IMG/VR virus record: IMGVR_UViG_3300045988_123953
Strand: one strand, 5' to 3'
Source: a virus
DNA: 64,000 nucleotides
This document shows, in pieces, positions 2,200-64,000 of this stretch. The position numbers were made by a program, and so were the translations under genes. Position 1 is the stretch's first letter, and every line of letters starts with the position of its first letter. Under the pieces are notes generated by a model, which did no database searches, was not told the DNA's origin, and was given only the letters and a program-made list of their open reading frames with translations.

Positions 2200-5100
2200 T
2201 GGCTTCACAATATAGTATTTTAAGGCAATATGCCCCGTATGTTAGTCCTTACAACATAGATCTTGTTAAGGACGTCATGATGTACAAACAGCAGAAGGTT
2301 GATGCTGCTCGTGAAAAGATCTATACCCAGGTAGATTATCTTATGGGTCAAGAGATAGATAAGCCTGAAGCCCGCGCTTATATGGAAGATAAGATGTCAG
2401 GTGTGATTGCTAACATCAATCAAAAATTCAAAGGCGTGGATCTTTCTTCTGATGGTGTTACGAGAGCCATACAAGGAGAGATAAGTTCGGTGTTAGATGA
2501 TACGGTCATTAACGCGATTGCCGGCACAAAAGAAGGCAAGAGGGTTATGAAGGAAATAGAATCTATAAAACAGAATCATCCTGAACTTTATTCTCCTATT
2601 AATGAATGGCATGCTTTGGACCCTTATTACAAATGGAGGTCAGATGGTAAAGCAGGATCAAGGTTGGGAGGTCTTCATTATTCTCCTTATGTCGATTATA
2701 CTAAGGAGATAAATAAGCTGGTCAGTGATTTTAGGAAAAACAACGAAGGCAAGAAGATTCAGACAACAGAATATGATGTTAAAGGTAATCCTACTGGTGG
2801 AATCATAGAAGTCAACGTAGATGAGCTTACTGATTCCCAGATAAGGAATTTTGTGTCTGCTAACTTATCTGAAAACATGAGGAATCAGATGAGAATAGAA
2901 GCATCATACATGGCAGCTACCAATCCGGTGTTCAGTAATCCGGATTTGGTTAGTCAATACATTGGGTCTTATGTCGAAAGATACGATAGGCATATAGGAG
3001 CATTGGAAGCAAAAAAGAAATCAGTAGGGGATAATAAGGATATTATTGATCGTATTGACAGTCAGATACAGGAAGCTAAAAATCAGAAAGCAGAAGCCAA
3101 GAGGGAGGCAGATATGATAATAGCTTCATCAGATCCGGTAGCGGCTGCTAATTTTGTTGTTACCAATAATCTTTTCGATAAGATGACTGATGCATGGAGA
3201 TACGACAATACAAGTTTTGAAAGGAAGAAAGATGATCTTTATTTTGCAAGGTTGGCAGAGGATAGGGCTCAGCAAAAGTTTTTGACTGACAATGCCAAGT
3301 CTATGGTTGAAATATCATTGGCGAATGAGCAGCTTGCTCAGGCTAAGATTGAAACCGAATACATGCGTACTTACGGTTCCAAGATGGGCACTGAAAGCTC
3401 ATCCGGAGGCACAAGAGGAGCAGGCGGTGTAGGAGTGCCGATGGCTCCTATGGACGGGCCTACGGCTATCAATTCTGGAACGGGTAAGATAGGATCTGTT
3501 AATTTGGCTAATATCCCTTATGAACAACTCACATCTTCTTCCACAGAGCGTAGAGCAAATTTATTGAAATTATATAATTCATTATCTCCTACAGACAGAA
3601 GCAATATCGTTGCAGCATCATACGAAGAAGAAAAAACTGACCCAGGATTGTATGCTAATATGACTCCTGAAGAACGGATATATTCTTATTTAAAAAATAA
3701 TGGAGGTCAGAAAAACGGATATTTCGGACAAGGAAATAACAGATTGTCTGAAGCTTATGATGCTTTACTTCTTTCTGATTCTAAGGCAAATGGAGCTGCA
3801 AAGGCTATAAATAACATAACTGATTATCAAATAGATAATATAGTTACTAAAAAAAATAAGGATATTATCAGGAAAGTTCGTAATGCTAAGTTTATGAAAG
3901 GAAATTCTTTTATGAATCTTACCAATACAGATGATAAGGCTGGAGCCTTCCTGCTCGCCACAGCCATAACAACTGGTGTATCTGATGCCGTAGGGTTCAG
4001 AGAATACATGATGGATCCTTCAAGAGGAATAGATATTCTTAGTGCTATATCTCCGTCATTAGGAGCTAAGGTGAGTGCCGGCAAGTTGGGGAAAAACATA
4101 TCTGATGCTATTACAAGCGAGAATAATGGTTCTTCTACTGGTACATTGGCTCTTATTAATGGAATGAAGAAACTCAATGGCGATCCTGATTTTAATATAT
4201 CTGATTATATGACCATAGATAAGGATGGTGATATAGATTTAAAAGATTATCAGGAAGGTGAACCATTGACTATTACCCAGCTAAGATATGCTGAGAAAAA
4301 CAGTAGGGTGTCTGATATGATAGCAAGTCAGATGCAGGATGAGATAAAAATGTCTGTATCTCCCGATCAGATTTCTGATAAGTTATCCCAGTATCATTAC
4401 CTTGATTCTTACAAAAGATACAATTGGAATGCCGATTCGCCGGAAAAGTCTTTGCAGAAGGCTCAGTTTAGAAGATTGTCTGGTTACATGGCAGGAAAGG
4501 TAAATAATCTGGATCCTACTGCTATTAATGCCATTAATATGGATGCCGAGATAGATAATGGCACCGTTAGAAGATTCTTGACTGCTCAAGTAGGTTTCGG
4601 TAAAAATTCTTATGTTACAGAAAGGGTTGAGATTACGAATGACGAGCTTCTTAAGGCGGGTATAGATCCTTCGGTCGAGGAGCGCAATTATCCGGTAGAT
4701 GGCTACAAATCAAGTTTTGAAACCTGTGATTTTGTAGATACCGGAAAGAAGGAAGGTTATTCTTATGATAAGTATCTTATACGTAATGGCCTTCCTCGTT
4801 TGGCTTCTAAGGCTGATGTTAAGAATGATCTTTATGATATAGTAAAGGTTCATGGTTCTTACCTTAAGCCAGAAGAAATGAATGTTGTTAAAACCCTTGT
4901 TGATAATTTTATTGACATGTCTGATAATATATCAGTTCAGTTGGAGGGAATGGACGATAGGGGTTCAAGAGAGGTAGCGGTCAATTTCTATGACAAAAGG
5001 ACTAAAAATTCTAAAAATCCTGCATTGTTGTTCTCGGATTTTGTTCCTTTGGATCCAGGTAATGATGAGTATGCGGATTACTGGAATAGCATTCACCAGA

Positions 5101-18620: not shown

Positions 18621-19012
18621 ATTCATATTGTTTTATTTTAAATCTAATTAATTCATGAATGTCGTACTTTTGTTGAAAAAGTATTCTATATGGAAAATAA
18701 GGAAGATTACGTTGGTTACGAAGATCAAGAACTGTGTAACCGGTATTACAAAGAGGCTGAAGCCATGAGGCAAAAGCAGGACTGGTCTCGGCTTAGGGCT
18801 GTCCCTGCTCCGGCCAAGGGAACGCCATCGCCCGGCTGGGGTCAGCTTGGACGTGGAAATGGTGTCCGTGTTAAGTATGTGAGTATCAATTCAGGATTGG
18901 GAGGAGATAGGTTATGACCGTAGAAGAATTAGCTAATAAAAGATACGGTGGCGAATTTGTTTTCATATCCGAAATAACATTAAAACAATATAATTTCATT
19001 ATAAGGTTTTAA

Positions 19013-19256
19013 TATCCGGACCATAAATGGTCCGGATATTAGCCTAAGCCTTGAAACGAAGGCTACGTTATTTGAGAATAGATAGTTATCTACGGATGTT
19101 TGCCCAAGTCTGTAGCTCTAAGGTGGGTGATTAAACAGGAGTAGTGTATTTGCGAAACAGTGTTGCTTACGAAAAACCTTAAATAACATTGGCGATGGGT
19201 ACTAACAGAGTTTTACTCTGACTTATGTTGAATAAACATTGAAAACGTTTGTAAGT
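19013..19256 (+). ncRNA. Putative omega-RNA (IscB guide-RNA scaffold), copy 1
   Basis: Non-coding segment immediately 5' of iscB, about 90% identical to the segment 5' of the second iscB copy; the differences include two fully compensatory changes in a 6-bp hairpin (AGCCTT-GAAACG-AAGGCT vs AGTGTT-GAAACA-AACACT) and loop-only changes in a second hairpin (CAGAGT-TTT-ACTCTG); begins with a 9-bp hairpin ATCCGGACC-ATAAAT-GGTCCGGAT. Confidence 0.55.
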
Positions 19257-20477
19257 ATGGTGTACGTACAGGATATAAATGGTAAACCTATGATGCCTAC
19301 AACGAGGCATGGTAAGGTAAGGAGACTGCTTAAAGACAAAAAGGCAATCGTTGTAAACCTATGTCCGTTTACCATCAAATTAATGTACGTTACATCTGAT
19401 TACAAACAAGAAATCGTGTTAGGCGTTGATGCTGGTACTAAACATGTTGGTTTATCAGCTACAACGAAAAGCAAAGAACTTTACAGTAGTGAAGTGATCC
19501 TTAGAAATGATATCGTAGATCTTTTGTCTACCAGAAGGGAGCTACGAAGAACAAGACGGAATAGGTTGAGGTATAGAAAACCTCGTTTCAATAATAGAAT
19601 AAAAAGCAAGCGTCCAGGATGGGTAGCACCTTCGGTGAAGTACAAAATAGACGCCCATATTCGTGTTATTGACAATGTATGTTCTATATTACCAATATCT
19701 CGTATTGTTATTGAAGTAGCTCAATTTGATACCCAAAAAATCAAGAATCCCGATATCTCCGGTAACGAATATCAGGAAGGGGATCAACTTGGTTTTTGGA
19801 ACACAAGGGAATATGTCTTGGCAAGGGATGGGCATAAATGTCAGTATTGTAAAGGGAAGTCAAAAGATAAGATCCTTAATGTCCATCATCTTGAATCCCG
19901 AAAAACGGGAGGTGATTCCCCTTCTAATCTTATTACCTTATGTGAAACTTGTCACAAAGAATACCATAAAGGTAATATAGATTTAAAGATCAGAAGAGGC
20001 AAGTCGCTCCGCGACGCAGCCGTAATGGGAATCATGAAATGGAGGTTGTATGAAGAACTAAAATCTAAATACGACAATGTTTCTATGACTTTCGGGTATG
20101 TTACAAAATACAATAGGATTAATCATGGTATTGAAAAATCCCATGTTTCTGATGCCTTTGTCATTTCTAAGAACTTCAACGCGAAACGAATCGGATGTCA
20201 ATATTTAAAACGTTTAATTCGTAGACATAACAGGCAAATACATAAAATGAAAATTTTAAAAGGAGGAAAGAAGAAAAACAATCAAGCTCCTTTTGAGGTT
20301 TTCGGTTTTAGATTGTTTGATAAAGTGTTGTATAACAATGAAATATTCTTTGTTTATGGAAGGAGGAAATCAGGGAGTTTCAATATCAGGGATTTCAACG
20401 GAGAAAATTCAAAAGATGTTTCACACAAAAAGTTTAAACTCATTAGAGGGAAGAGGCATCCGATTATATTAAAGTAA
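19257..20477 (+). CDS. iscB: IscB RNA-guided nuclease (OMEGA system), intact, 406 aa from ATG 19257
   Basis: Domain order read from the translation: PLMP-like N-terminus (NGKPMMPT), RuvC-I (VLGVDAGTKHVGLS), Arg-rich bridge helix (RRELRRTRRNRLRYRKPRF), RuvC-II (IVIEVAQFD), HNH (CQYCKGK...NVHHLESRKTGGD...LITLCETCHKEYH), RuvC-III (KSHVSDAFVIS). ORF track starts at an upstream TTG (19239); copy 2 starts at the ATG. Confidence 0.9.
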   Translation: MVYVQDINGKPMMPTTRHGKVRRLLKDKKAIVVNLCPFTIKLMYVTSDYKQEIVLGVDAGTKHVGLSATTKSKELYSSEVILRNDIVDLLSTRRELRRTRRNRLRYRKPRFNNRIKSKRPGWVAPSVKYKIDAHIRVIDNVCSILPISRIVIEVAQFDTQKIKNPDISGNEYQEGDQLGFWNTREYVLARDGHKCQYCKGKSKDKILNVHHLESRKTGGDSPSNLITLCETCHKEYHKGNIDLKIRRGKSLRDAAVMGIMKWRLYEELKSKYDNVSMTFGYVTKYNRINHGIEKSHVSDAFVISKNFNAKRIGCQYLKRLIRRHNRQIHKMKILKGGKKKNNQAPFEVFGFRLFDKVLYNNEIFFVYGRRKSGSFNIRDFNGENSKDVSHKKFKLIRGKRHPIILK

Positions 20478-49793: not shown

Positions 49794-50055
49794 ATCTACA
49801 AACGTTTTTAATGTTTATTCAACATAAGTCAGAGTGAAACTCTGTTAGTACCCATCGCCAATGTTATTTAAGGTTTTTTTTGTAAGCAACACTGTTCCTG
49901 AATACCAGAACTGTTTAATCACTTACCTTAGAGCTACGAACTTGGGCAAACATCCGTAGGTAACTATCTATTCTTAAATAACGTAGTGTTTGTTTCAACA
50001 CTTAGGCTAATAATCGGAATAGCTTTTGGCTATTATGCATAATACAATACAAATT
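49794..50055 (-). ncRNA. Putative omega-RNA, copy 2 (minus strand)
   Basis: Reverse complement aligns to 19037-19256 with covarying hairpins; begins with a 6-bp hairpin AATAGC-CAAA-GCTATT, then the shared ATTAGCCTAAG. Confidence 0.5.
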
Positions 50056-61669: not shown

Positions 61670-61788
61670 ATTATTATTGTTTTATGCATTATACAAATAC
61701 AAAGAGCGCATACCTTCACAGGCCGGCGCTCCTTTCAATAAAAATGAAAAAACTAATATTACATAAACATATTGTTTTCTACTCTTTA

Positions 61789-62022
61789 TTACAATACTTT
61801 TGTTCCGCAATTATTATATCTTCCGTACTCTTTTTTCGTATCATTCAAGATTTCAAAAACCATCTTCTTGTGATCTTCGTTTGGTAACCTATCCTTAACA
61901 GCCGATATTACGCCCGCTATAGACGTAAAGCCTGAATCTGTTATTGAACACAGCAACACGCCTCTGTCGGCTCCGGTGCTTATTGCTGACGCCTTTATAA
62001 TATCATTCTTATATATTCTCAT
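61789..62022 (-). CDS. Hypothetical protein (77 aa)
   Basis: ORF. Confidence 0.4.
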   Translation of the reverse strand: MRIYKNDIIKASAISTGADRGVLLCSITDSGFTSIAGVISAVKDRLPNEDHKKMVFEILNDTKKEYGRYNNCGTKVL

Positions 62023-62042
62023 AACTTTTTTGTTTTATTGTT

Positions 62043-62139
62043 TGTGAGATGCCCAGAATCGAACCAGGACCGGCACATACGCACCGGCACGCCGCGTCAT
62101 CCCCTCTATGATGCAGAAATAGGCATGCCTATCCTCACG
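62043..62139 (-). other. tRNA-like element 1 (T-arm GGTTCGATTC plus a 3' acceptor-like CATCTCAC on the minus strand) inside a GC-rich island; a full cloverleaf could not be built by hand
   Basis: + strand GTGAGATGCCCAGAATCGAACCAGG; 5'/3' pairing GTGAGG/CTCAC about 95 nt apart; the internal segment is ~60% GC against an AT-rich background. Confidence 0.25.
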
Positions 62140-62197
62140 AACCGACATGCCAAAACCCAAAACTTAATTTGATGAATAAAATAGATTAACAAAAATA

Positions 62198-62512
62198 CTA
62201 TTCTAATTCTTTTATAATATCTTTCACAATATTCAGCCTTACCTCCTTCGTTTCTGGACTAAGACAACCAAACCACCCATAAAACGTTCTTGTTTCCTCT
62301 GGTTCTGTGGCCATACTTATCTTCTCCTCCAATTCCGGGAAATATATTCTCACCATTTCGTCTGAACGAAACTCATAGATATTTTTATGTGTTTTGAAAT
62401 ACATAAACACTACATTTCTTAACGCAACACATATGTATTCCCCATCCTCTAACCTATCAATCATCTCATATACCTTTTTCCATATGAATAATCGCTCTTC
62501 TTTTGTAAACAT
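62198..62512 (-). CDS. Hypothetical protein (104 aa)
   Basis: ORF. Confidence 0.5.
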   Translation of the reverse strand: MFTKEERLFIWKKVYEMIDRLEDGEYICVALRNVVFMYFKTHKNIYEFRSDEMVRIYFPELEEKISMATEPEETRTFYGWFGCLSPETKEVRLNIVKDIIKELE

Positions 62513-62520
62513 ATCTTTCT

Positions 62521-62868
62521 TTATTTTTGTGGTATTATTTGACTGTACGCAGACTTTTCCATGTACACAATACTATGCTCCTGTCCAAGTATTTTCTTTG
62601 CTGCTTCTTTCTTTATCGCGCAATATCTCCCTGTACGATACGGATTCTTTTGATCTGATCCATCCTCAACTTCGATAATAAAACAACCTCCGTCATCTAT
62701 TATCTTTTTGCAATTGTCACATATTTCTCCCGTGCATATATGATGCGGCGCCTGCCCTTTGATGTTATTCCCTAATAAAGCAATCCCCATCTCTTCACCG
62801 CATACTATGCATAGTTCTATGGATGGATTCAACCCATGCTCTGGATGCAATACAATACCGTCTTTCAT
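62521..62868 (-). CDS. Zinc-binding protein (115 aa; CIVCG ... HHICTGEICDNC)
   Basis: ORF with paired Cys/His motifs. Confidence 0.5.
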   Translation of the reverse strand: MKDGIVLHPEHGLNPSIELCIVCGEEMGIALLGNNIKGQAPHHICTGEICDNCKKIIDDGGCFIIEVEDGSDQKNPYRTGRYCAIKKEAAKKILGQEHSIVYMEKSAYSQIIPQK

Positions 62869-63269
62869 TTTCTATCCTCCTTTATTAATTCTATTATAAA
62901 CTTTTTATCTTGTTCCCACAATGGCAGCCCTTCTTTTACTGTGTATGCCACTGTTTCCCTCTCTCCTATTAATCGCACGGCAATCTCTCTTGCTTTCAAG
63001 TCATCCTCCTCATGCGATTTGTTTATTAAATCATAGGCACATGATTCCACCTTTTGCCTTTCGATTATTATCGAACCCATTAACTCGCTTATATGCGATC
63101 CTAAAAACGATAAGACATTAATAGCTTTCCCAATATCATTTGAAATAGCACTTGCTAAATACATCTTATCCATATACTCCGGCAAAGCCTCGTATGCCGT
63201 TTCTATGTTTTTATACTGATTTTCGTTTACCTCCCTTTTAATCAGTTCTTCAAATTCTTCTTTTAACAT
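62865..63269 (-). CDS. Hypothetical protein (start assigned to the internal Met MLKEEF; ORF track extends to 63416 across the tRNA-like element)
   Basis: The N-terminal 50 codons of the long ORF overlap tRNA-like element 2 and look non-coding. Confidence 0.45.
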   Translation of the reverse strand: MLKEEFEELIKREVNENQYKNIETAYEALPEYMDKMYLASAISNDIGKAINVLSFLGSHISELMGSIIIERQKVESCAYDLINKSHEEDDLKAREIAVRLIGERETVAYTVKEGLPLWEQDKKFIIELIKEDRK

Positions 63270-63289
63270 GTTCTTCCCTATTTTAATGT

Positions 63290-63381
63290 TGTGTGAGATC
63301 GCCGGAATCGAACCGACTTGCTGCACCATGAATCCCATAAAGCAAATGCTCCGATCTTCGCAGATGGGAGCATTCTGTCTA
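63290..63381 (-). other. tRNA-like element 2 (T-arm GTCGG-TTCGATT-CCGGC followed by GATCTCAC)
   Basis: + strand GTGAGATCGCCGGAATCGAACCGAC; a minihelix TGGGATT/GATCTCA can pair, but no complete D/anticodon arms were found. Confidence 0.25.
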
Positions 63382-63416
63382 AAGCATAAGAAAATTAATG
63401 AAGAAATTTTTCTCAC

Positions 63417-63497
63417 TTACGCCATAGCATCTAAAATAGCTATCAGCACTATTTCTATGACAAACATAATAGAAAATATCTTAAATGCCTTTTTCAT
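63417..63497 (-). CDS. 26-aa hydrophobic peptide (MKKAFKIFSIMFVIEIVLIAILDAMA) with a strong Shine-Dalgarno
   Basis: AGGAGG 10 nt upstream of the ATG; not in the ORF track (too short); lies between a GC-rich island and tRNA-like element 2. Confidence 0.3.
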   Translation of the reverse strand: MKKAFKIFSIMFVIEIVLIAILDAMA

Positions 63498-63604
63498 ATC
63501 GCTATCTCCTCCTTTTTATTTTTTTTAGTTCCACAATAAACTGTTCCGGCTCTGCTCCGACCTACGTTCCACCTACAACCGCAGGCCTTAGCCCAAGGCG
63601 CCGC

Positions 63605-63874
63605 CTACTCCCCCTCTATGGCAGCCTGTTCGTACCTACAAATCCAATCTCCATCTATACAACTATCACTACGCGGTAATAAACATTTATCCTTATAACA
63701 ATCATAAAAAATACACCTATCACAACTGTAATCCTTAACGTCTACACAGCTAACTACCTTAGCATATACTATTCCATCACTGCCTTCTATTCCTTTTACC
63801 CTGAAAATAGAACCTTCTACCTCCTTACTCAAATCTAAGTCAGGCGCAAAGTCATATACGTTCATACCATCCAT
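63605..63874 (-). CDS. Small Cys-rich protein (89 aa), CDRCIF-motif family
   Basis: C-terminal SCVDVKDYSCDRCIFYDCYKDKC parallels the gene at 41003..41200. Confidence 0.45.
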   Translation of the reverse strand: MDGMNVYDFAPDLDLSKEVEGSIFRVKGIEGSDGIVYAKVVSCVDVKDYSCDRCIFYDCYKDKCLLPRSDSCIDGDWICRYEQAAIEGE

Positions 63875-63965
63875 ATTTTAATTGTTAAACATCCCGCTTA
63901 AAAAAAAATACTCACATAATGCAGTCCTCAACCCTTAATCTGTTGGAAGGAACCTATATAATGCT

Positions 63966-64000
63966 GTTGAATTTTGTTGGTAGGGAGTTGAATTTTGTTG
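63966..64000. repeat. Direct repeat GTTGAATTTTGTTG x2 (63966-63979 and 63987-64000), 21-nt period, running into the window edge
   Basis: Seen directly at the window end; the array may continue beyond nt 64000. Confidence 0.5.

Follow-up and report, generated by a model that had tools for sequence, protein, structure and literature searches.

A 64,000-nucleotide (nt) stretch of viral DNA, IMG/VR record IMGVR_UViG_3300045988_123953 (hereafter the window, meaning this stretch at its full length), carries in two of its intergenic gaps a pair of elements, A (62044-62159, minus strand) and B (63293-63337, minus strand), that resemble transfer RNA (tRNA). Together with a third paralogue, C, from a close relative, folding and comparison among related genomes show them to be conserved, strand-specific, tRNA-derived and tRNA-shaped RNA structures that are unable to decode. 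We consider it most likely that A and B are modules which tRNA-handling enzymes of the cell would cleave or bind, and not components of translation. An earlier note, made from the letters of the window without database searches, had pointed to T-arm motifs in these gaps and had offered several explanations, among which "tRNA-like RNA" turned out to be the right class for both, as seen in the cloverleaf fold of A and the acceptor/T-arm domain of B.

A T-arm motif repeated in two intergenic gaps

Region 61700-64000 is 96.5% identical to the human-gut phage crAssE-Sib (OR575929, 151 kb; the record name reads "csAssE-Sib"), an epsilon crAss-like phage with 196 open reading frames (ORFs) and six tRNAs (PMC11054128). 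A and B lie between early genes in an epsilon crAss-like phage that is abundant in the human gut; in the OR575929 record the genes of the region are all "hypothetical" and both gaps are without annotation. The window genes lie on the minus strand from ~32.8 kb to the window end, and the minus strand is therefore taken as the RNA sense of A and B, as the earlier note had it and as the greater stability of the minus-sense folds (below) also indicates. The two gaps, between ORFs 61789-62022 and 62198-62512 (A) and between ORFs 62865-63269 and 63605-63874 (B), are the sole long intergenic gaps of this gene block.

The motif GGTTCGATTCNGGNNATNTCAC, previously noticed in both gaps, has exactly two matches in the window (0.01 expected by chance), both on the minus strand: copy A at 62044-62065, reading GGTTCGATTCTGGGCATCTCAC, and copy B at 63293-63314, reading GGTTCGATTCCGGCGATCTCAC. 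The hairpins are true mimics of a T arm, with an acceptor-like strand on their 3' side, and a scan of the 64 kb for any 5-bp hairpin with a TTCRANN loop closed by G-C found A and B alone (0.22 expected). Both have the 5-bp stem and 7-nt UUCRANY loop of a T arm, that is, CCUGG-UUCGAUU-CUGGG in A and GUCGG-UUCGAUU-CCGGC in B. The GC-rich islands reported with the motif are real (GC 0.58 at 62050-62149 and 0.59 at 63550-63649 vs. ~0.3-0.4 in the surroundings). The sharing of CCCCTCTATG is likewise non-random, with exactly two window matches where 0.05 would be expected (62101-62110 and 63611-63620), but the second copy had been placed 9 nt away, at 63602-63611; it overlaps the final codons of ORF 63605-63874.

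Element A folds as an oversized cloverleaf

The earlier note had not been able to build a complete cloverleaf by hand; for A this becomes possible once the 5' partner of the acceptor is taken to be UGGG (62159-62156). With U1 at 62159 and the discriminator C73 at 62044, the minimum free energy (MFE) structure of 62165-62036 (minus strand) is a five-way cloverleaf of -42.8 kcal/mol, and RNAalifold on 41 distinct A homologues returns the same arms and the same UGGG/CUCA pairing. Over the 33 arm pairs, 99.3% of 1353 cells are paired, a value that falls to 35-50% when the partners are slid against each other. Eighteen of the 33 pairs vary on one side with pairing kept, ten are G·U, and the extra pair types are mostly compatible (19 vs. 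~5 incompatible). At Watson-Crick pairs, 11 of the 13 transitions are of the kind that preserves pairing (hand count; binomial ~0.01).

The acceptor 5' strand UGGGUUU (62153-62159) pairs through U1-A72, G2-C71, G3·U70, and G4-C69 with 62048-62045. It is invariant in 59 genomes, and the four corresponding alignment pairs (19:135, 20:134, 21:133, and 22:132) are kept in 41 of 41 sequences. The 3' strand is CAUCUCA plus C73 (62051-62044), and in the MFE fold the stem is extended by pairs between leader and trailer. Arm H1, in the D-arm position (62122-62151; GGCAUGUC-G-GUUC-GUGA-GGAU-A-GGCAUGCC), has 12 pairs that are 100% paired, five of them varying on one side. Arm H2, in the anticodon-arm position (62092-62116; CUGC-A-UCAU/AUGA-C-GCGG with loop AGAGGGG), carries CAUAGAGGGG, i.e., CCCCTCTATG on the plus strand. 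Arm H3, in the variable-arm position (62069-62088; GCCGGUGC-GUAU-GUGCCGGU), has eight pairs, five of which vary on one side and are still paired; two variants have deleted it through a GTGCCGG direct repeat, and it is therefore dispensable. One genome has lost the 5' half of A. In the T arm (62052-62068), the stem variants UCUGG/CCAGG and CCCGG/CCGGG keep the pairing. Past the discriminator, a conserved A/C-rich trailer, AAACAAUAAAAC, runs to the start codon of ORF 61789-62022 (within 62023-62051) and resembles the trailer of B, ACAACAUUAAAA.

A different acceptor had been implied before, with GTGAG, the complement of CTCAC, as the 5' strand. At first look this candidate makes 6 bp in both A and B, and it closes the MFE structure of 129 nt of B (z = -2.5). 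In A, GUGAG sits in the loop of H1, an arm homologous to H1 of C through the common UUCGU..AGGAUAGGMAUGC. In B, GUGAG is lost in three variant types without compensation and hence is not the acceptor partner. Two variants, L016 and L059, also fit UGGG better; in L016 (CAUUCAAC) the UGGG-type pairing survives via a register shift, whereas a GUGAGG pairing would break. The candidate was thus rejected in favor of UGGG.

A minimal domain at B and a third paralogue

Element B reduces the same design to an acceptor stem, a linker, and a T arm. Its 5' strand UGGGAUU (63337-63331) forms 7 bp with GAUCUCA (63300-63294, followed by C73 at 63293), two of them G·U (G3·U70 and U7·G66); between them lie the 13-nt linker CAUGGUGCAGCAA (63330-63318) and the T arm (63317-63301; 5-bp stem, 7-nt loop). 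The acceptor helix is kept in 187 instances representing 16 variants, one of which exchanges G3·U70/G4-C69 for G3-C70/G4·U69 and U7·G66 for U7-A66, with loss of the terminal pair. Neither the 5' strand nor CAUGGUG, which opens the linker with seven bases and is a possible stand-in for a D loop, shows any variation, while the following six bases (CAGCAA) are the most variable stretch of the region.

Just upstream of this domain is a GNRA-capped hairpin (63344-63375, minus; GAAUGCUCC-C-AUCU-GCGA-AGAU-C-GGAGCAUUU), in which three pairs show two-sided changes (AU/GC, UA/CG, and CG/AU) and the loop is GCGA, GAGA, or GUGA. It is preceded by a very conserved AU-rich spacer (63376-63416, minus) that starts with GUGAG (63416-63412) and has a pi of 0.012 (vs. 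0.06-0.085 at third codon positions). Farther 5' lies the GC-rich island (63530-63625, minus; pi 0.025, nearly invariant over 63627-63575) with the hairpin GCUGCC-AUAGAGGGGGAGUA-GGCGGC (63625-63600); ORF 63605-63874 has its stop codon within the loop of this hairpin, where the second CAUAGAGGGG is also found. Some relatives have a divergent island version without this hairpin, so the unit of ORF and T arm does not need it. A consensus structure for the island across both versions was sought and given up, as all they share is a small GGGC-UAAG-GCCU hairpin. Since CAUAGAGGGG lies in a hairpin loop in both copies (H2 of A and the island hairpin of B) and its count in the window is non-random, B may descend from an A-like element that was split by ~260 nt including a 26-aa ORF; a restricted local alignment was marginal, 18 of 500 shuffles doing as well as its score of 23. 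The island also holds, upstream of the small ORF, three GGAAC repeats at spacings of 22 and 10 nt (63540-63600, minus).

BLAST of B against the rest of crAssE-Sib revealed C at ~575-483 (minus) of OR575929, outside the window, with the sequence GGUUGU-A-[GCAU..AUUC-GUACA-GGAU..AUGC]-GYG-[UCCGG-UUCGAUU-CCGGA]-RCAACC-U; it recurs in ~95 of the IMG/VR stretches examined. By RNAalifold, C is a three-way junction of acceptor (GGUUGU/RCAACC), H1, and T arm. Pairing holds in 549 of 551 cells, and both the T stem (UCCGG/CCGGA, UCUGG/CCAGA, and UUCGG/CCGAA) and H1 show compensatory changes. The acceptor stem, U73, and trailer (CAACCUCUAAA) of C match the phage tRNA-Cys (GGCUUGU...ACAAGCC-U-CUAAAAA) minus one base pair, and C is therefore tRNA-derived. 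Among the three, C alone has this resemblance; A and B were also considered as copies of the phage's own tRNAs, a candidate that failed as their acceptor strands match none of Cys, Arg, Gln, and Met.

Tests for tRNA and tmRNA genes

ARAGORN and Rfam, both named as checks in the earlier note, gave no sign of a conventional gene. ARAGORN found 0 tRNA or transfer-messenger RNA (tmRNA) genes in the window, and the Rfam tRNA model (RF00005) had no match at E<=10 on 61700-64000 or on slices down to 141 and 71 nt (62030-62170 and 63280-63350). At gathering thresholds Rfam reported nothing in the window but two HEARO RNAs, elsewhere, and in E-value mode the tmRNA models aligned the bare T arm at 6-10 bits vs. 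a gathering score of 47. The same programs do detect the six true tRNAs that the phage carries elsewhere (Met, Gln, Arg, Cys, Tyr, and Lys). A and B were accordingly rejected as tRNA or tmRNA genes. H2 of A is not a decoding loop, since its length varies (6-9 nt between genomes, with a G-run of 3-6 nt) and U33 is absent, position 33 of AGAGGGG being a G; B is without any anticodon arm. Of the features typical of tmRNA, G3·U70 is present in the UGGG/CUCA stems of both A and B, while the tag frame is not: the 26-aa ORF lies 5' of both acceptor strands and has its own Shine-Dalgarno (SD) sequence and AUG.

Conservation among relatives

The 22-mer GGTTCGATTCNGGNNATNTCAC occurs in at least 116 IMG/VR stretches, nearly all with both copies, ~850 or 1250 nt apart, and there are two or three T-arm elements per 151-kb genome. 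For an independent sample we retrieved 80 loci through the neighboring 115-aa protein, all from relatives at >=93% identity. The T arm of B was present in 80 of 80 and that of A in 77, plus one match to the tail of A alone. The UUCGAUU loop was unchanged throughout: 0 of 14 T-loop positions were polymorphic, while in the same loci the adjacent ORF varied at 47 of 116 third codon positions, and 14 invariant loop positions would have a probability of ~6e-4 if neutral. Many non-coding segments show a pi of 0.004-0.025, compared to the 0.06-0.085 of third codon positions. Further, minus-sense folds are 8-11 kcal/mol more stable than plus-sense folds for A, the 3' part of B, and the 5' island of B (11 kcal/mol for the last). 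A, B, and C are under purifying selection.

Beyond these relatives, blastn and tblastn against GenBank phages gave crAssE-Sib as the sole match, and a pattern search for distant homologues with GAATC-loop variants gave one chance match. Exact matching of the 22-mer in 185,579 bacterial and archaeal species, each represented by a single genome, gave five matches, none in a tRNA gene, and one of the five is the same phage mis-binned. The 3.9-kb contig NZ_DXLG01000138.1, from a metagenome-assembled genome labeled "Veillonella sp.", is a fragment of this phage that carries B and C; it represents either mis-binning or a faint hint of the host.

In relatives, gene insertions and deletions join exactly after the TAAAAC of the A trailer. 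For instance, crAssE-Sib has an extra 141-aa gene (2711-3136 of the stretch compared) exactly after the A trailer (window 62023-62043), flanked by AATAAAAC repeats, with an N-terminus paralogous to ORF 63605-63874, the ORF that precedes B; other relatives are without the 134-aa gene directly after B. Hence, cassettes are gained and lost at the 3' edge of the elements. Pfam and PHROGs searches with the neighboring proteins returned nothing useful on function.

A proposed role in transcript processing

The model that we favor, while regarding it as evenly poised between right and wrong, is that A, B, and C form a three-member family of non-decoding, tRNA-derived elements that would act as RNase P/RNase Z/CCA-enzyme punctuation or stability modules. 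That is, the host tRNA machinery would recognize the modules, RNase P would cut 5' of position 1, and RNase Z would cut after the discriminator, as may be expected since the phage's own tRNAs are also without an encoded CCA; the CCA-adding enzyme, TruB, and TrmA could then act on the released RNA. Such processing would punctuate the long polycistronic transcript in that the upstream mRNA would be left ending just after a protective hairpin, the downstream mRNA would begin with the conserved A/C-rich leader, and a small stable tRNA-like RNA of ~116 nt (A) or 45 nt (B) would be set free. In B, the predicted RNase P cut falls 6 nt past the strong GNRA-capped hairpin, which would thus end the mRNA of the 26-aa ORF.

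Findings on bacterial Y RNAs fit this scheme: the 7-bp acceptor stem is the main determinant for RNase P, these RNAs mimic tRNA, and in vivo one of them, whose acceptor stem has 7 bp, is an RNase P substrate and receives a CCA tail (PMC4201824). Elements of such a scheme also exist outside bacteria and their viruses. In MALAT1-mascRNA and MEN-beta, a tRNA-like structure serves as the RNase P/RNase Z processing signal in a longer transcript. Plant-mitochondrial t-elements are likewise tRNA-like RNase P/RNase Z processing signals inside longer transcripts (PMC1920247). A and B share with both an acceptor and T-arm mimic without a decoding anticodon or an encoded CCA, placed on the sense strand of a polycistronic unit between an upstream RNA that ends in a protective structure and a downstream RNA. 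They differ in belonging to a bacterial phage, in that cleavage is here a prediction, in the full oversized cloverleaf of A, in the conserved trailers, and in that two elements overlap the ends of upstream ORFs. Phage T4 makes two small stable RNAs with no known function, RNAs C and D (also called species 1 and 2), that have tRNA-like 3' parts, are co-processed with the phage tRNAs, and lie inside the tRNA cluster; unlike these, our elements A, B, and C are found between protein genes, several kb downstream.

Several observations weigh against processing as the role. The acceptor stem of A is weak, with 4-5 good pairs (four contiguous plus one) and mismatches at U5·U68 and U7·C66, and the single-sequence MFE of B prefers other pairings by ~1 kcal/mol (-11.2 vs. 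-10.2 kcal/mol). Covariation in A is one-sided only, with 0 pairs changed on both sides, because nearly all of the variation comes from relatives at >=93% identity, and the shuffle control was uninformative. In addition, upstream ORFs run into the 5' half of C, where the stop codon of the ORF before it lies, and into the hairpin upstream of B; were RNase P to cut C efficiently, that stop codon would be lost. Finally, a pure processing signal does not need a conserved trailer past its discriminator.

If the processing model holds, these elements would represent the first signals for processing or mimicry reported from epsilon crAss-like phages, which are common in the human gut and in which, to our knowledge, most genes and all non-coding RNAs are uncharacterized. 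It would add a bacterial virus to the tRNA-like punctuation elements of plant mitochondria, MALAT1-mascRNA, and the Y RNAs, and would tie the elements to the phage's other tRNA-related cargo, i.e., its CCA-less tRNAs, the Ro60 protein with a YrlA-like RNA (below), and a polynucleotide kinase/phosphatase encoded by crAssE-Sib. In practice, standard tRNA finders and Rfam miss elements of this type, and A and B are not to be labeled tRNAs or suppressors in assessments of stop-codon recoding.

Alternative explanations

A more far-reaching reading, which we hold to be unlikely, is that A and B are alanine-accepting tRNA-like RNAs that, after RNase P, RNase Z, and CCA addition, would be charged by alanyl-tRNA synthetase via G3·U70 and act in trans. 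Such RNAs would be a phage counterpart of the 3' tRNA-like structures of plant viruses or of the tRNA-like domain of tmRNA; the charged or uncharged mimic could titrate, or be protected by, tRNA-binding host factors or anti-phage enzymes that target tRNA, or it could feed the phage's Ro60 RNA-surveillance module, and the cut at B would, in addition, yield the mature mRNA of the small membrane peptide.

Similarly doubtful is that A, B, and C are Y-RNA-like partners of the phage Ro60 protein (Rsr), either tethering it to an effector or being protected by it, in analogy to Yrn1 and RNAs a and b of Deinococcus. crAssE-Sib does encode a Ro sixty-related protein, the orthologue rsr at 73091-74725 (plus). 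Bacterial Y RNAs (YrlA, RF02553; Deinococcus Yrn1, RF01053) have canonical T arms, mimic tRNA, and occur as several T-arm-bearing RNAs per genome, and in the tested cases they are substrates of RNase P, CCA addition, and TruB (PMC4201824). The best local Rfam match of A is indeed to RF01053, aligning H2, H3, and the T arm (CA.C.U..A.GGG..GA.GCGGCG...GCCG.UCC.GGUUCGAUUC..GGCAU), but this similarity is weak (16 bits vs. a gathering score of 80, E=1.1). RF02553 has no match on A or B; by inspection, both are without the GNCGAAN0-1G Ro-binding motif, which in Y RNAs is located close to the 5' end in a stem that joins the two termini, and they do not show the permuted T-AS-D order, as no conserved hairpin or D arm lies 3' of their T arms (criteria of PMC4201824). 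Known Y RNAs are encoded within 4 kb of rsr on the same strand, whereas A and B, at ~148-150 kb (minus), are ~75 kb away. Moreover, the place beside rsr is already taken by a proper YrlA-like RNA, unannotated, at 72601-72705 (plus) of OR575929, upstream of tRNA-Tyr, tRNA-Lys, and rsr; it has its T arm, acceptor-like hairpin, and D arm in YrlA order and reaches 28.5 bits with RF02553 (E=0.0024), short of the 69-bit gathering score.

We give the same low weight to the view that the elements are cis-acting modules of 5' untranslated regions, in which a stable T-arm hairpin at the 5' end and an unstructured A/C-rich leader would aid the stability or translation of the downstream mRNA and the likeness to tRNA would reflect ancestry. 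A, B, and C are each 20-31 nt upstream of the following start codon, the trailer ATCTCACA(C)AACAWTAAAA is common to A and B past the would-be tRNA end, and the gene downstream of A has no SD. This view leaves unexplained the invariant 7-nt T loop, the conserved 5' acceptor strands, and the cloverleaf arms 60-115 nt upstream; besides, the downstream gene varies between relatives while the element stays.

It is somewhat harder to believe that the elements are decaying tRNA pseudogenes without present function, left at junctions of cassette gain and loss. The clear origin of C from a tRNA-Cys-like gene, the cassette insertions and deletions adjoining the elements, the loss of H3 or of the entire 5' half of A in single genomes, and the one-sided variation of A in a young population would all fit. 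The T loops, on the other hand, are invariant where 41% of neighboring third codon positions vary, the T stem and H1 of C and the B hairpin show compensatory changes, and most transitions at Watson-Crick pairs in A preserve pairing.

DNA-level sites, i.e., attP cores, recombination sites for cassette exchange, or hairpin promoters for a virion RNA polymerase, are very improbable. A and B are direct repeats bounding a 1.25-kb, three-gene segment, with insertion/deletion junctions adjoining them, and the RNA polymerase that crAss-like phages inject has no known early promoters (bioRxiv 10.1101/2020.03.07.982082). The derivation of an attP core from a host tRNA, raised in the earlier note, was dropped because exact matching of the 22-mer in one genome per species (185,579 species) hit no tRNA gene. 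The two repeats are also unequal in their stems, and the changes they accumulate preserve pairing, which is unexpected of an att core. A template-strand hairpin promoter of the N4 type was rejected as well, as the hairpin is poor on the plus (template) strand, where A keeps 3 of 5 pairs; the ten G·U pairs of A would be A·C on that strand, and the folds are strand-specific. Just two or three copies per 151-kb genome also speak against such sites. Ends of IS200/IS605 (IscB) elements were considered too and set aside, since both regions, compared by BLAST with the window and with 50 kb of crAssE-Sib, matched each other and C alone.

There is little to recommend the idea that B, its 5' island, and the internal ORF form a divergent tmRNA-like RNA with alanine-accepting ends and a frame ending in ...DAMA. 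The tRNA-like domain of tmRNA (or an alanine minihelix) does offer a parallel, with a G3·U70 acceptor stem (7 bp in B) stacked on a T arm and a GG-containing linker in place of the D arm; the 26-aa ORF ends in AMA, and UUGGGCU in the island could serve as a distal 5' strand. There is also a crAss-like precedent: Cellulophaga phage phi14:2 (NC_021806) carries at 4031-4500 (plus) an RNA that is a genuine tmRNA by ARAGORN (tag GSSVQKLAMVA*) and by Rfam (46 bits, E=2.6e-16); the RefSeq stretch has no feature there, and it is the early intergenic region from which a very abundant, unexplained non-coding RNA has been reported (bioRxiv 10.1101/2020.03.07.982082). A second, lone T-arm hairpin lies at ~1821-1837 of phi14:2. 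A and B differ from tmRNA in having no reading frame in the loop, no pseudoknots, a U1-A72 first pair, and a C rather than an A as the discriminator. In B the best 5' acceptor strand lies after the ORF, which therefore falls outside the loop and has a strong conserved SD and AUG; the distal strand is not conserved in the divergent island, and, as above, ARAGORN and the Rfam tmRNA models find the T arm alone.

Lastly, the idea that A and B truly decode, be it as divergent or intron-containing tRNAs or as suppressors acting on the iscB TAG (as had been suggested), can practically be dismissed despite the canonical T arm, the cloverleaf outline of A, and the phage tRNAs elsewhere, given the negative ARAGORN and Rfam searches, an H2 loop of variable length without U33 or a CUA/UUA/UCA anticodon context, and the lack of an anticodon arm in B.

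The 26-aa ORF upstream of B

The small hydrophobic peptide gene noticed earlier is present at 63417-63497 (minus; MKKAFKIFSIMFVIEIVLIAILDAMA) with its SD, AGGAGG, at 63508-63513. It is intact in 175 of 180 instances, its substitutions are mostly hydrophobic-for-hydrophobic, and the SD is retained despite insertions and deletions in the spacer; it is a conserved gene, probably translated into a real small membrane peptide. Diversity in the ORF is not raised at third codon positions, perhaps because constraints on the RNA overlap it or because the peptide evolves fast. A toxin or a leader peptide, both raised in the earlier note, is possible: like type I toxins and small phage membrane peptides, it has an MKK start, a single hydrophobic helix, and a strong SD, and its flanking RNA is highly structured with a strong 3' hairpin. 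In contrast to type I toxins, no convincing conserved antisense promoter or antitoxin RNA was found for it, the lone weak promoter-like site on the plus strand (63410-63437) having its spacer altered by 4 nt in deletion variants of some relatives. Pfam and PHROGs gave no family above threshold for this ORF (DUF5362 below threshold).

Other features of the region

Just after ORF 61789-62022, a terminator-like hairpin, GGAGCGC...GCGCUCU followed by UUGUAUUUGUAU (61690-61745, minus), would, from its sequence, end the transcription unit that holds B and A. At the other end, upstream of ORF 63605-63874, two copies of the tandem direct repeat CAACAAAATTCAAC lie ~22 nt apart on the minus strand (~63950-64000) and are a possible operator or promoter element. 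Elsewhere in the window, the two HEARO (IscB omega-RNA) matches at 19012-19206 (plus) and 49844-50036 (minus) score 89.3 and 113.1 bits, above the Rfam gathering score, the former lying upstream of the long ORF 19239-20477 (plus).

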